DNA of 38,200 bases from Escherichia phage sortregn, in the sequence record MN850588.1; one strand, given 5' to 3'. Each line of letters begins with the position of its first letter. The stretch's first letter is position 1. The position numbers and the translations under genes were made by a program. This document shows, piece after piece, positions 21,544-36,892 of this stretch. The notes below the pieces were generated by a model. It was not told the DNA's origin. It was given only the letters and a program-made list of their open reading frames with translations, and did not search any database.

Positions 21544-21765
21544 ATGGCCCGATCACTGATAGCAGTCAAAGACGCCGCCGGGGAAAAGTACCTCCTCCCG
21601 GTCCGTAACATCGTGAGCGTGACGGAGTTCCCGGACAACGAGCGCCGCGTGGAGGTCAAGGTCCGCGAGCCGATCAATGGCCCAGACGGGCGGATCTGTG
21701 GGTACGAGTTAAACCTGTATTACTCGCCAATGTCGATCGCACAATTCGAAGGGGCTTACGCGTGA
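21544..21765 (+). CDS. hypothetical protein
   Basis: 73 aa ORF, AAGGAG SD, first of four coupled small genes. Confidence 0.45.
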   Translation: MARSLIAVKDAAGEKYLLPVRNIVSVTEFPDNERRVEVKVREPINGPDGRICGYELNLYYSPMSIAQFEGAYA

Positions 21766-21932
21766 AACGCTACAAATGCACCGTAGGCGACAAGCGCGGG
21801 GCGTTCGGCGACTGTATGGAGCAGGACAAGGACGGGGACTGGATGCGCGTCTCCGACCATAATCGACACATTCAGGCACTGGAGCGCCAGATCGCGGCGC
21901 TAAAGGCCAAAACCAGAGAGACGAAACAATGA
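21762..21932 (+). CDS. possible small protein (56 aa, GTG start)
   Basis: Own reading; overlaps both neighbours (GTGA and ATGA); below ORF-track cutoff. Confidence 0.3.
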   Translation: MKRYKCTVGDKRGAFGDCMEQDKDGDWMRVSDHNRHIQALERQIAALKAKTRETKQ

Positions 21933-22297
21933 AAACGACCTACAACCTCGACCAGATGGCCCTCTTTTCTGCGATCGCCGCAGCGGTAGGAAAACAGGCG
22001 CCAGGGCTTCCGGCGGATAACCGCGCTAACGTGGTGATCGAGGCCGCAAACATGATCGTAGCGGCCTATGCGCTGACCGATGCCGAATACATGGCGAAGA
22101 AGGCAGAAGCGCCGATCGCCGTTGACCTCCAGCCGACGGCGGAACAGGTGGAGGCCGGGATCGCCTCGCTGTGGGACACCATCCCCGGCGCGATGGATCA
22201 GCTATGCCAGGACGTGGCAGAGGAGGAGCAGGGCGATCTATTCTCCGACGCTGTTACTTTCGTGTGGCAAGCCATGATCGGGAAGCGTCCACAATGA
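21929..22297 (+). CDS. hypothetical protein
   Basis: 122 aa ORF, ATGA coupling. Confidence 0.45.
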   Translation: MKTTYNLDQMALFSAIAAAVGKQAPGLPADNRANVVIEAANMIVAAYALTDAEYMAKKAEAPIAVDLQPTAEQVEAGIASLWDTIPGAMDQLCQDVAEEEQGDLFSDAVTFVWQAMIGKRPQ

Positions 22298-33531: not shown

Positions 33532-35925
33532 ATGTCCGACTTAGACACGCTTTCGGCGGTTTCTATGCCGTCCGTCCCATTCCTCCGCATCGATCGCTTT
33601 GCGGCGGTGGCGGACGGTGGGCTTTACGTGGGCCAACCCGACACGGACCCGACGCAGCCGGAGAACCAGGTCCCGGTCTACATCCTGAACGAGGACGGAA
33701 CCCTGACCCAGATCGAGCAGCCTGTGAAGATCGGGATCGCGGGCTATCCGGTTTATAACGGGCAAGTCGTCAAGGTCCTGACGCAGCCGGGGACCTCTCT
33801 CGACGTCCGCGACCGGAACAACGTCCAGATGTTCTACTTCGACAACCTGACGAAGTACGACCCGGAACAGATGTGGAAACTACTCCAGAGTTCGACGGGC
33901 TGGGAGTTCGTGGGGACCACTTACGGCAACGTGAAACAGGCCATTCAGGGCTATATCACGCCGTGGAACTTCGTCGGCAAGCCGGAATATGCGACCGAGA
34001 CGGAAGCGATTCAGGCCATGTTTGACTATGCGAAGGCGAATAACCTCCCGATCCGCGCTTTCAACTGGGAAGGCACGACCGCCGGGATCGTCACCGCAGA
34101 GAACATCACGATCGTCGGCGGGATCTGGAACCTGGTCGGCAATAACGCAAAGTTCACTAATTGCGTGGTTTTTGATGGGATCTGGCGTCGCCGCTCTATC
34201 TGGTCAAAAGGGACTTACTTCGAGCGTTGCCGCTTCGAACAATGCCGCATCCTTCACGCGTCGGACGACGTGCTGATCCTTAACTCCAAGTTCTCCGGCA
34301 AGGTAGGCAGGAACGTGGCCTCCATCGTCATGCAGGGGAACCAGGTCGAAGGCGACAACAACAAGGACTATTTCGGGCGTTTACGCGTCGAGAACTGCGA
34401 GTTTAATGATATTTCTGGGGGGATCTTCCAGCAGGGCGGGCACTTCAAAATCACCCGCATGATCTTGCGTAACCTGACGTTTACGAACCTGGACTCCGAC
34501 GCGATCGAGCTTAACGTGGTGAATGATGGCTCCTTTACCGAAGGATGCACGATCGAGAACATCGAGATCTATAACTCTAACGCCACGCTTGCGAACTCCA
34601 ACTTAGGGATCGGGATCGGTGTGGCTGGTGCTGGCCCGTACTCGTGGGACGCGCCGGAAACCAACTACGCGAAAAACTTCGTGATCCGCAACGTGACCGC
34701 CGTCGGCGTTCGCCAGTGTGTCCACGTCGAGGTCGGATCCGACTTCGTGATCGAGAACGTGAACGTAAACCCGGACGCCAACAAGTCGATCGGGACTGGC
34801 CTGATCGTCTCCGGCGTTTATATCGCTGGTTCGAAGAACTTCACGATCAACGGCGTAAGCGGAACCCCTGTTCCGTCCGCGACTGTGCCGATCACGGACA
34901 TTCGTATGATCTGCCTGGTGCCGGGACCTACTGACCAATCCGCCCAGCAGTACAATACGCTTTGCCGTGACTACACGATCCGAAACGTGGACGCAAAGGG
35001 CGCATGGGTGCAACTGTGGGTAGACGCTTACCCCGGCTATGGTTCGATCCAGCCACACAGCAACCACGCGACGATCGAAAACGTGGACTGTTATCGCTTC
35101 TCGTGCTTCGGCGTGGGGACCGTGACGACGCTCCGAAACATCACTTGCACCACGTCCGACTGTTTAGGCGATACCTCCACCGGGGGCGGCTATAAAAACC
35201 AGGCGGGATCCGGTACGCTGTTATATATCTTCACTAAATCGGTGCTGAATATTGACGGCTTCTACTCGGAGACTCCGGGCGAGATCTACCGCAAGCCGCG
35301 CTACATGTACACCAATGTGAAGAACTGCAACATTCAGGTAGATCAGGGCGCTAACTTCGACGGACGCGTGGGCGCTCAACTGACGCCGATCACGAAGGCT
35401 TACGCGCCGCAGATCACGGCCCACGGTGGATATGGGAACTTCTTCCCGCGTGGTCGGGAGTTCGACGTGGGCGATCAGGTCTTTGTCTACGACTACGGCA
35501 GCAACGACCCGGCTAATGGTCCTGGGGGGATTGTGGCGCTCAAGGCTTACGTGGTGACGGGCTTCGGCGCGTACTACCCGGCGAACACTGGCGCGTCCAC
35601 CCTCCGCGCAGCAGCAGCGGGCGCTAAACGCGTTTACTGTGCGCTGACGCCGACCGGGACCAGTACCGGATCGCCGTGGCTGTACACTGACACGCTGACC
35701 GCCGGGACGCGTATCAAGATCACGACCAGCGTCGGACAGGAAACCGTGACGATCACCCGCGCACCGTTCCAGCCGCTGAACGATAACGACAACACGGACA
35801 ACCCGGCGAACACGTCGTTACCTATCGCGATCGAGTTCACCCCGGCGCTACAGGGTAGCGTGGCGGCGAACGCTCGCTTTACGATGGCTTACCCCATCAC
35901 CACGCGACCGCCGATCTCCGCATAA
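33532..35925 (+). CDS. tailspike protein, P22-type head-binding N-domain plus beta-helix receptor-binding domain
   Basis: ORF 33520..35925, second ATG 33532 preferred (GGAG SD); YVGQPDTDPTQPENQVPVYILNEDG resembles P22 gp9 head-binding domain; Asn/Gly/Val-rich body. Confidence 0.8.
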   Translation: MSDLDTLSAVSMPSVPFLRIDRFAAVADGGLYVGQPDTDPTQPENQVPVYILNEDGTLTQIEQPVKIGIAGYPVYNGQVVKVLTQPGTSLDVRDRNNVQMFYFDNLTKYDPEQMWKLLQSSTGWEFVGTTYGNVKQAIQGYITPWNFVGKPEYATETEAIQAMFDYAKANNLPIRAFNWEGTTAGIVTAENITIVGGIWNLVGNNAKFTNCVVFDGIWRRRSIWSKGTYFERCRFEQCRILHASDDVLILNSKFSGKVGRNVASIVMQGNQVEGDNNKDYFGRLRVENCEFNDISGGIFQQGGHFKITRMILRNLTFTNLDSDAIELNVVNDGSFTEGCTIENIEIYNSNATLANSNLGIGIGVAGAGPYSWDAPETNYAKNFVIRNVTAVGVRQCVHVEVGSDFVIENVNVNPDANKSIGTGLIVSGVYIAGSKNFTINGVSGTPVPSATVPITDIRMICLVPGPTDQSAQQYNTLCRDYTIRNVDAKGAWVQLWVDAYPGYGSIQPHSNHATIENVDCYRFSCFGVGTVTTLRNITCTTSDCLGDTSTGGGYKNQAGSGTLLYIFTKSVLNIDGFYSETPGEIYRKPRYMYTNVKNCNIQVDQGANFDGRVGAQLTPITKAYAPQITAHGGYGNFFPRGREFDVGDQVFVYDYGSNDPANGPGGIVALKAYVVTGFGAYYPANTGASTLRAAAAGAKRVYCALTPTGTSTGSPWLYTDTLTAGTRIKITTSVGQETVTITRAPFQPLNDNDNTDNPANTSLPIAIEFTPALQGSVAANARFTMAYPITTRPPISA
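34415..34425 (+). repeat. CTGGGGGGATC 11-mer copy
   Basis: Exact match; frame-checked against tailspike residues S299-G-G-I302. Confidence 0.85.
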
Positions 35926-35930
35926 AGCAA

Positions 35931-35957
35931 AGGGGCCAATTAAGGCCCCTTTTTTTG
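35931..35957. terminator. bidirectional intrinsic terminator between tailspike and leftward operon
   Basis: AGGGGCC-AATTA-GGCCCCT hairpin followed by T7; T-rich on the other strand too. Confidence 0.7.
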
Positions 35958-35979: not shown

Positions 35980-36177
35980 TTAGCGCGGCAGGTCGAGCCG
36001 AGCCTGTAAAACGCCCGCGTAAGCCTTCATCACGTCCAACTGTACGACGAGGAGACGCTGTTCCGTAGGGTTAACTTTCGCGAACCCCGGCGAGTTAAAA
36101 ATGAATTGCGACAGTGCCGTGATCTTGCCTTCGAGATCGGCCTTTTCGATGCGGACGCGTTCTAAAAAGTCAGTCAT
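35980..36177 (-). CDS. hypothetical protein, downstream partner of HTH gene
   Basis: ORF 35980..36195 (TTG) with start moved to ATG 36177 after AGGAG; 8-nt overlap with HTH gene. Confidence 0.4.
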   Translation of the reverse strand: MTDFLERVRIEKADLEGKITALSQFIFNSPGFAKVNPTEQRLLVVQLDVMKAYAGVLQARLDLPR

Positions 36178-36388
36178 GGTTAACTCCTGTTTCAATCAGA
36201 TCCGCGATCGAGACGTCGAGCGCCTTCGCGATGCGGCATAGGTTAGTAACAGATGGCAATTCATGCCCGTTTTCGTAGCGGCTCAACTGATGCGGGATCA
36301 TGCCGATTCGCTCCGCTAATTCTTTTTGCTGGATGCCTTTCGCTTCGCGGACTTGCTTCACGAGGCAAACGGCTTTTAATTCCGCCAT
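36170..36388 (-). CDS. XRE/Cro-family helix-turn-helix transcriptional regulator
   Basis: ORF 36170..36403 with start moved to ATG 36388 after AAGGAG; QQKELAERIGMIPHQLSRYENG HTH signature. Confidence 0.7.
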   Translation of the reverse strand: MAELKAVCLVKQVREAKGIQQKELAERIGMIPHQLSRYENGHELPSVTNLCRIAKALDVSIADLIETGVNHD

Positions 36389-36451
36389 GTTCGGCTCCTT
36401 CATTGGTTAACGTCTCCGTGATTATTCATTAAAGCGTTATGCAAATCAAAA
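36389..36451 (-). promoter_or_regulatory. candidate sigma70 promoter for HTH cassette
   Basis: On minus strand TTGATT, 17-bp spacer, AATAAT upstream of the HTH gene. Confidence 0.4.
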
Positions 36452-36892
36452 TTATTCTGGGTTAAGCCCTTCACCGTTAACCAGATGCCACTCTTTATGA
36501 TGCTTCTCGCAGAGCCAGCGCACATCTAACGGGCGATCGTAGTCGTCATGATGTCCCACTACCTTCTCCGCCCCGCAGACCTCACACGGCCCCCTGTGGA
36601 GTTCTCCAGTCTTTAGCGCGTAATAGACCATGCTATGAGCGCGGCGCTTCTTTGGATGCCTGGCATGATAGGCTGATTTTGTAGCGTTCGATCGCTCCCG
36701 GCCTTCTCCATGCTGATATTTTTTAGCGTGACAGATGATCCTCTCTTTTCTTTCTGGATCGCTGTGGTAATAACTCCGGTAATTCTTGTTCTTGCACTGG
36801 CGACAGCGTGGATCCCTTCCGTCCTTCCGGCGCTTGTCCTTGTGGAACTCCTCCGGCGGCTTTGATTCGTGGCAAATTGTGCATTGTTTCAT
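36452..36892 (-). CDS. HNH endonuclease
   Basis: 146 aa; CEVCGAEKVVGHHDDYDRPLDVRWLCEKHH HNH motif with flanking cysteines. Confidence 0.75.
   Translation of the reverse strand: MKQCTICHESKPPEEFHKDKRRKDGRDPRCRQCKNKNYRSYYHSDPERKERIICHAKKYQHGEGRERSNATKSAYHARHPKKRRAHSMVYYALKTGELHRGPCEVCGAEKVVGHHDDYDRPLDVRWLCEKHHKEWHLVNGEGLNPE

Follow-up and report, generated by a model that had tools for sequence, protein, structure and literature searches.

A Sequestin-family gene, probably an anti-Thoeris sponge, in an exchangeable slot behind a conserved helix-turn-helix gene of Escherichia phage sortregn

What is the function of the two-gene cassette located on the minus strand of Escherichia phage sortregn at positions 35980–36451? 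We addressed this question in a window of 38,200 nt, the whole stretch of DNA analyzed (sequence record MN850588.1). A previous sequence-only reading had described here a small XRE-family helix-turn-helix (HTH) gene followed by an overlapping open reading frame (ORF) of 65 aa, and had noted that such an architecture is shared by repressor modules and HTH-antitoxin/toxin pairs. Sortregn (MN850588) is a lytic podovirus with a GC content of 59%, isolated on E. coli MG1655 (PMC7552041); its locus region is 99.5% identical to that of Salmonella phage Lumpael, a member of the genus Murrayvirus. In the searchable literature, the papers naming these phages contain no discussion of the cassette locus. 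Our analysis indicates that the cassette probably encodes an anti-Thoeris sponge of the Sequestin family, whose gene follows a conserved HTH gene and occupies a slot for exchangeable anti-signalling genes.

The two-gene structure with an 8-nt overlap, as described previously, was confirmed on the minus strand. The small ORF occupies positions 35980–36177 and encodes 65 aa plus a stop codon; it is intact, starts with the ATG at 36177, and is preceded by AGGAG (36188–36184) 6 nt upstream of the start. Its ATG overlaps the stop codon of the HTH gene by 8 nt (ATGACTGA, 36170–36177). The encoded protein is identical to the “hypothetical protein sortregn_49”; its counterpart in Lumpael is gp41, and the ORF is conserved there at 98.5%. 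No recognizable motif had been reported for this protein, which proved wrong: a profile search matched residues 3–62 of 65 to Pfam family PF21825 with an E-value of 2.9e-17 and 62.7 bits against a curated cut-off of 24.8. The same assignment is also precomputed for an identical protein (P0001). PF21825 was formerly designated crAss001_48, and newer Pfam releases name the family Sequestin. Judged by the profile match, the 65-aa protein is a clear member of this family.

Thirteen proteins of PF21825 were tested by Tal et al., and ten of them inhibited type I Thoeris; in purified form, Sequestin binds the type I Thoeris signal 3′-cyclic ADP-ribose (3′cADPR) and removes it from solution (bioRxiv 10.1101/2025.07.12.664507). 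In SequestinA, residues E12, Q47, and R61 were essential by mutagenesis and R8 contacts the phosphates; Sequestins were modelled as antiparallel dimers with two interface pockets, and Y16O of phage T4 is an active family member (bioRxiv 10.1101/2025.07.12.664507). We aligned the sortregn protein with the 13 tested Sequestins (Table S1 of Tal et al.), the alignment comprising 16 sequences in all. Residues R7, E11, L15, L22, Q46, M50, Y53, L57, and R60 were invariant in 16 of 16 sequences. R7, E11, Q46, and R60 are the equivalents of the SequestinA ligand residues R8, E12, Q47, and R61, respectively, and all four are kept in the 65-aa protein. Its identity is 38% to the verified SequestinB and 43% to DenB.1 of the T-even-type phage JS10. 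Lumpael and related phage names were absent from the accessible part of the supplementary tables of Tal et al. The conservation of the ligand residues suggests that the sortregn protein binds 3′cADPR and inhibits Thoeris.

The protein was also modelled with AlphaFold2 (AF2) as two copies joined by a flexible linker, using a paired alignment of 28 family members. The linked dimer consists of two helical hairpins (helices 2–28, 30–34, and 37–62 in each copy), with predicted local distance difference test (pLDDT) values of 94–98 in the structured parts and a predicted template modelling score (pTM) of 0.77, and the two hairpins pack confidently. The crystal structure of a Sequestin domain is reported to be an antiparallel dimer (bioRxiv 10.64898/2026.06.04.730250), with which the pair of packed hairpins in our model agrees.

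The minus-strand gene order of the sortregn locus is Erf, single-stranded DNA-binding protein (SSB), a 146-aa endonuclease, the HTH gene, the 65-aa ORF, and a terminator; a convergent tailspike gene faces this terminator from the opposite side. We analyzed the position behind the HTH gene in 21 related phages or contigs. The layout of SSB, endonuclease (where present), HTH gene, variable gene, terminator, and convergent tailspike gene was kept in Murrayvirus, Sortsnevirus, Kosakonia phages, Hungariovirus, and Skarprettervirus. A known anti-signalling family was encoded in 13 of the 21 slots and a lipoprotein-like ORF in one, and seven were empty (ST231, KMB41, Kc166B, C130_2, STP9, L022, and L024). 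Occupied slots thus hold, in 13 cases of 14, a known inhibitor of nucleotide immune signalling, and these inhibitors belong to five unrelated families. Sequestin was found in sortregn, Lumpael, and Logan contig L053; Acb4 (PF13876) fused to Sequestin in L016, in which the HTH protein is 99% identical to that of sortregn; an unassigned domain fused to Sequestin in Kc237; Tad2 (PF11195) in sortsyn and IME_EC2; an Acb2/Tad1-hairpin protein (PF24729) in IME279, Sortsne, and L152; a RyR-domain protein (PF02026, RyDEP-like) in sortkaff, L019, and L153; and the lipoprotein-like ORF in L021. Phage proteins with the RyR domain (RyDEP family) degrade or sequester cADPR signals (PMC13232231).

The borders of the slot are precise. 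On the left it is bounded by the conserved 3′ end of the HTH gene, and on the right by a short conserved stretch followed by the terminator, which is kept in all relatives directly after either the HTH gene or the cargo. In Murrayvirus genomes the ATG of the cargo overlaps the HTH stop codon in the sequence CATGA(C/T)T(G/A)A, realized as CATGACTGA, CATGATTAA, or CATGACTAA. Empty genomes read CACGATTAA at the junction and have no ATG there; therefore, the junction ATG is present only where there is a gene to start. In Sortsnevirus-type phages the cargo starts with GTG or TTG one base past the TAA stop codon of the HTH gene. Three Sequestin-containing cargos are only about 34–38% identical to each other, and are therefore separate acquisitions rather than derivatives of one another. 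Genome comparison thus shows the cassette to consist of a conserved regulator gene and, behind it, a place where anti-signalling genes are exchanged.

Several cargo genes deserve separate mention. The closest homologue of the sortregn Sequestin (P0002, L053:3001-3204, plus strand) is 77% identical to it and has the same HTH-overlap context. In the cargo of Kosakonia phage Kc237, the Sequestin domain is fused to an N-terminal domain (L009:1703-1870, plus strand) that spans about 55 aa and carries the motif YEDGYVSWSPREVF; this N-terminal domain matched phrog_32732, 9467, 872, and 11049, a Pfam search gave no assignment for it, and a resemblance to Acb4 was not confirmed. An unrelated viral contig encodes a related domain (L089:577-891, plus strand), directly upstream of its Sequestin gene. 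The Kc237 domain is a candidate for a further sponge-associated domain. The slot ORF of L021 (L021:2692-3201, plus strand) encodes a low-complexity protein of 169 aa with a lipoprotein-type signal (MKKLIIVAIVAASLVGC) that matches phrog_21570 and no Pfam family; it is the only slot occupant outside the known signalling inhibitors, and it could have a superinfection exclusion or another accessory function. The annotation of the RyR-domain gene of sortkaff (L007:1706-2080, plus strand) places the start internally, at 1745; judging from L019 and L153, the true start would be the TTG one base past the HTH stop codon. A 16-mer scan of viral contigs returned mostly known genomes and probable chance matches.

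Sequestin genes outside this clade were analyzed in a neighbour census covering the SequestinF-like subclade. None of the 80 other SequestinF-like viral contigs contained a related HTH ORF within 1.5 kb of the Sequestin gene, as determined with a hidden Markov model (HMM) of the HTH family that matched all positive controls. Neither did any of the 63 distinct upstream neighbours of Sequestin genes contain a Pfam HTH domain; these neighbours did include two Acb4 proteins and one Acb2-like protein. In the T-even context, denB.1 of JS10 is located between rIIB and denB and has no HTH gene beside it.

The HTH gene itself is located on the minus strand at 36170–36388 and encodes a protein of 72 aa from the ATG at 36388. 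The longest ORF begins at an alternative ATG (36403) and encodes 77 aa (36170–36403). The start at 36388 is more likely the better one, because the Shine–Dalgarno sequence AAGGAG (36400–36395) is located 6 nt upstream of it and 72 aa is the length annotated in relatives. The protein matches Pfam HTH_3 with an E-value of 4.5e-17. Its identity to homologues is 86–99% in Murrayviruses, about 70% in Sortsnevirus, and 41–55% in more distant relatives. The nearest solved structures were SinR, C.BclI, HipB, and EDF1, with E-values of about 1e-4 to 1e-5 (1.3e-4 for C.BclI, PDB 2b5a; about 5e-4 for HipB structures), while the score with MqsA was below the threshold (20.7 bits against a cut-off of 30). 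As judged from these searches, the protein is a generic XRE domain, and the structure matches reflect the generic fold only. In relatives of the Hungariovirus type, a DUF4406/nucleoside 2-deoxyribosyltransferase-like gene (L013:1118-1504, plus strand, in phage C130_2; also present in L012 and L022) lies directly before the HTH gene, its end overlapping the HTH start; the HTH gene of C130_2 is unannotated.

The sigma70-like promoter attributed to the cassette was recovered by a consensus scan on the minus strand at 36449–36421. It consists of the −35 hexamer TTGATT (36449–36444), a 17-nt spacer, and the −10 hexamer AATAAT (36426–36421). The match to the consensus is 9/12, which by itself is weak evidence, since 0.8 sites were expected in the 2.1 kb scanned and 2 were obtained. 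Across 10 phages of two genera, however, the hexamers and their distance of 17 nt are retained and the spacer sequence diverges: the −35 hexamer reads TTGATT, TTGACG, or TTGACT in Murrayvirus, Sortsnevirus, and the Kosakonia phages, and AATAAT follows after 17 nt. The scan and this conservation together suggest a functional promoter. Directly after the −10 hexamer lies a stretch of 15 nt (CACGGAGACGTTAAC, minus strand, 36406–36420), identical in five Murrayviruses and the Sortsnevirus-type phages, which is a candidate operator or element of the 5′ untranslated region (5′UTR). The 21-mer spanning the −10 hexamer and this invariant stretch occurs once in the window. A repeat search also found a perfect 9-nt inverted repeat bracketing the promoter (36404–36483), with the plus-strand arms TGGTTAACG (36475–36483) and CGTTAACCA (36404–36412). 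The upstream arm of this repeat falls within the endonuclease coding sequence; it is lost in KMB41 and Sortsnevirus, which makes the significance of the repeat doubtful.

We failed to find an operator shared with other promoters. An ungapped comparison of the promoter with 23 intergenic regions of Lumpael gave a best match of 12/14, which equals the shuffled null; the 21-mer, as stated above, is unique in the window. The palindrome GTTAAC was considered as another operator. The window contains 13 copies where 4.5 would be expected, a number reached in none of 100 shuffles; 11 of the 13 copies read CGTTAAC in one orientation, two copies (2393 and 2414), spaced by 21 bp, are located close to the 5′ end of the RusA-like gene, and four are found within 412 bp at the cassette (36070–36481). 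Of these four, three encode Val-Asn in frame, and conservation across genera is limited to the copy in the 5′UTR (36406–36411). GTTAAC was therefore set aside as an operator, and its enrichment is left without explanation.

The strong bidirectional terminator that had been predicted also proved to be present, just beyond the span 35980–36451 of the sequence-only reading. The intrinsic terminator (35921–35952, both strands) has a stem of 9 bp with 6 GC pairs (AAAGGGGCC/GGCCCCTTT, 35929–35952) and is shared with the convergent tailspike gene. Its folding energies are −19.1 and −19.0 kcal/mol on the two strands, with z-scores of −2.7 and −3.6, respectively. The terminator scan flagged the plus strand only; the tail on the cassette strand is TTTGCTTT.

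These data bear on three other explanations of the cassette. According to one of them, the cassette would be a type II toxin–antitoxin module, the HTH protein being an autoregulating antitoxin and the 65-aa protein the toxin that it neutralizes. The architecture is consistent with this proposal, since a small XRE HTH gene comes first, overlaps its partner by 8 nt, and has its own promoter; the weak similarities to MqsA and to HipB structures agree with it as well. However, these similarities are generic XRE-fold matches, and the small protein is a Sequestin sponge, outside any toxin family. In seven relatives, the HTH gene and its promoter are present with no cargo behind them, the same slot holds Tad2, Acb2-like, RyR-domain, and Acb4-Sequestin genes, and Sequestin occurs elsewhere without an HTH neighbour in both censuses and in the denB.1 context. 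The toxin–antitoxin explanation was rejected on the family identity of the small protein and the independent occurrence of both partners, and we regard it as extremely improbable; the repressor-type role of the HTH protein, the other half of the previous suggestion, stays plausible. According to another explanation, which we regard as unlikely, the protein has the Sequestin fold and does not act on type I Thoeris, being either a sponge for another ligand (2′cADPR, His-ADPR, N7-cADPR, or a cyclic di- or trinucleotide) or an inactive remnant. Several observations agree with this and weigh against an anti-Thoeris sponge. Three of the 13 tested Sequestins were inactive on the tested type I Thoeris (bioRxiv 10.1101/2025.07.12.664507), and other sponge families have proved broad or variable in specificity from member to member (bioRxiv 10.1101/2025.07.12.664507; bioRxiv 10.64898/2026.06.04.730250). 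The closest homologue, that of L053, has Leu in place of Arg60 (R60L), a position essential in SequestinA and SequestinB, and may be inactive or altered in specificity. A further point against the anti-Thoeris interpretation is that neither sequence nor profile searches revealed a Sequestin relative in the PDB and that a Foldseek search with the linked-dimer model gave generic four-helix bundles only, with E-values no better than 0.1. On the other hand, the sortregn protein retains every ligand-contact residue of the set of four as well as the hydrophobic core positions, type II Thoeris, CBASS, and Pycsar escaped inhibition by all 13 Sequestins tested (bioRxiv 10.1101/2025.07.12.664507), and the ORF is intact, has a good Shine–Dalgarno sequence, and is highly conserved in Lumpael.

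The third explanation concerns the HTH protein, which might be a general Cro-like developmental regulator (e.g., for early-gene shut-off) with no specific tie to the sponge; the cargo would then be located where it is since the end of the early operon before the terminator is a permissive and well-expressed insertion site. This is a serious possibility, although we do not expect it to be the case. The HTH gene, its promoter, and the 5′UTR are conserved with or without cargo, no regulator other than the HTH gene is annotated in the genome of Lumpael, the occupant of L021 is a lipoprotein-like ORF and not a sponge, and Sequestin genes of other phages have no HTH gene. The retention of the HTH gene and promoter where the slot is empty, from which it follows that the function of the HTH protein is independent of the cargo, also weighs against our interpretation of the cassette. 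So does the recognition helix of the HTH protein, which varies by genus (PHQLSR and QQRLSC); since the candidate operator stays invariant, a shared operator fits poorly. An Aca-like role dedicated to the cargo is further opposed by the lack of association with sponges outside the clade, seen in the 80 SequestinF-like loci, the 63 upstream neighbours, and the remote HTH homologues (L025–L052), in which by-eye inspection only was made and showed no recognizable sponge cargo downstream, and by the loss of the upstream inverted-repeat arm in KMB41 and Sortsnevirus. In favour of local autoregulation, the HTH gene has its own conserved promoter with the invariant 15 nt after the −10 hexamer and the flanking inverted repeat, and none of the other intergenic regions repeats the promoter sequences. 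The motif not being recurrent above the null and the 21-mer being unique, no regulon sharing the operator is visible, which speaks against a general regulator. Moreover, the cargo genes represent five unrelated families and yet without exception adjoin the HTH stop codon at 0–1 nt, several of them with weak GTG or TTG starts; therefore, cargo translation probably depends on the HTH reading frame, and this would tie the output to HTH expression. We slightly prefer the version in which the HTH protein represses the cassette promoter and thereby sets the sponge dosage over that of a general Cro-like regulator; under both versions, the stop/start junctions likely make cargo translation dependent on HTH translation. 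A stronger claim, that the HTH protein is devoted to the control of an anti-signalling cassette with exchangeable cargo and that any gene placed between the HTH stop codon and the terminator is expressed by coupling at an HTH-autoregulated level, is tentative and rather doubtful.

In the anti-Thoeris interpretation, which we consider the best supported, the cassette would be an early immune-evasion operon of the lytic Murrayvirus sortregn. The host RNA polymerase would start at the conserved promoter, or read through from the upstream recombination-gene operon, and produce a bicistronic mRNA ending at the shared terminator. The first gene would yield the small XRE HTH protein, a conserved core gene product of the phage lineage, and the second, translationally coupled via the stop/start overlap, the Sequestin-family sponge. 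By homology, the latter would form an antiparallel helical-hairpin dimer, the two interface pockets of which would bind 3′cADPR, the alarm nucleotide produced by the Thoeris TIR protein ThsB. Once the signal is bound, the effector ThsA would stay inactive and the phage would escape type I Thoeris. The position after the HTH gene would act as a single-gene exchangeable slot, relatives carrying in it other inhibitors of nucleotide signalling or nothing. The HTH protein most likely represses its own promoter, limiting or timing the cassette, as Aca proteins do in anti-CRISPR operons and C proteins with restriction genes.

The sortregn protein resembles the Sequestin family, including Y16O of T4 and SequestinA–M, in its size of 65 aa, the all-helical hairpin, and the R/E/Q/R ligand and core residues, and like them it is phage-encoded and stand-alone. 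It differs in that its gene overlaps an upstream HTH gene, a context absent from the 80 other Sequestin loci; nor is an association with HTH genes mentioned in the papers on Sequestin and RyDEP. N4-like phages (Migulavirinae) have an anti-signalling hot spot by the SSB and recombination genes, a variable region in which inhibitors of Thoeris and CBASS accumulate, namely Tad2, Acb4, Sequestin, and RyR-related proteins (bioRxiv 10.64898/2026.06.04.730250). The sortregn-type slot is similar, being also near SSB and with Tad2, Acb4, Sequestin, and RyR-type cargo. In contrast, it belongs to another lineage, the Murrayvirus/Sortsnevirus podoviruses of about 41 kb, and it is a single-gene slot with exact boundaries from the HTH stop codon to the terminator and is HTH-coupled, whereas the N4-type island is multi-gene and no comparable regulator is described in the accessible text. 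What is new here is a further Sequestin member in an HTH-coupled slot; the family and the idea of an anti-signalling hot spot are already known.

The cassette also resembles the controlled operons of the acr-aca and C-protein types; the resemblance is one of logic only, and membership in either family is not claimed. With Aca/acr operons it shares a small HTH gene, exchanged small anti-defence genes in one operon, a strong early promoter, and a conserved regulator with varying cargo. Anti-defence genes of several families (Sequestin, Tad2, Acb2-like, RyR-domain, and Acb4-Sequestin) follow this HTH gene within the clade, as expected of an Aca-like regulator; an association of the HTH gene with anti-defence genes across unrelated mobile elements was not found (0/80 loci within 1.5 kb; 0/63 neighbours). 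Aca genes are usually located downstream of acr, while the sortregn HTH gene is upstream, its cargo is predicted to be coupled to it, and it is kept in empty-slot genomes. A C-protein gene is often located before the gene whose timing it sets, or overlaps it, and is autoregulated from an operator at its own promoter. C proteins such as C.BclI are likewise small XRE HTH proteins of about 75 aa; however, the match to C.BclI reflects the generic fold, the gene downstream in sortregn encodes a sponge and not a nuclease, and no C-box-like operator was identified. With the HTH-antitoxin/toxin pairs HipB-HipA, MqsA-MqsR, and XRE-RES, the cassette has in common the gene order, the overlap, and the XRE fold of the first protein. 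Unlike in these pairs, the second gene is outside the toxin families, and the partners co-occur only in this clade and are each found alone.

The neighbouring endonuclease gene (36452–36892, minus strand), located between the SSB and HTH genes, encodes a Zn-ribbon/HNH-like protein of 146 aa matching phrog_2340 with an E-value of 1.7e-39. It is conserved and annotated in sister phages, is unannotated in the Lumpael reference (gap 21758–22291), and is absent from contig L053. The GC content of the endonuclease, HTH, and Sequestin genes (35980–36892) is 0.52–0.54, below that of the genome (0.593) and of the adjoining SSB and tailspike genes (0.58–0.60).

The “hypothetical protein” sortregn_49/Lumpael gp41 thus receives a specific prediction, that of an anti-Thoeris 3′cADPR sponge, and a false toxin–antitoxin lead is removed. 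That a single slot with precise borders has captured, within one lineage of enterobacterial podoviruses, five families that neutralize nucleotide signals lends independent support to the recently proposed notion of anti-signalling hot spots. The relatives also form a natural near-isogenic series, with Sequestin, Acb4-Sequestin, or nothing behind a 99%-identical HTH gene and Tad2 behind an 86%-identical one. This series allows the contribution of each sponge to the host range to be measured, which is relevant to the choice and engineering of therapeutic coliphages and Salmonella phages. Our data further suggest that sponge genes may be under HTH control, like anti-CRISPR genes. If the HTH protein is indeed a dedicated controller, the slot would be usable for guilt-by-position discovery, and the lipoprotein-like ORF of L021 and the N-terminal domain of Kc237 with its motif YEDGYVSWSP would represent new immune-evasion functions.

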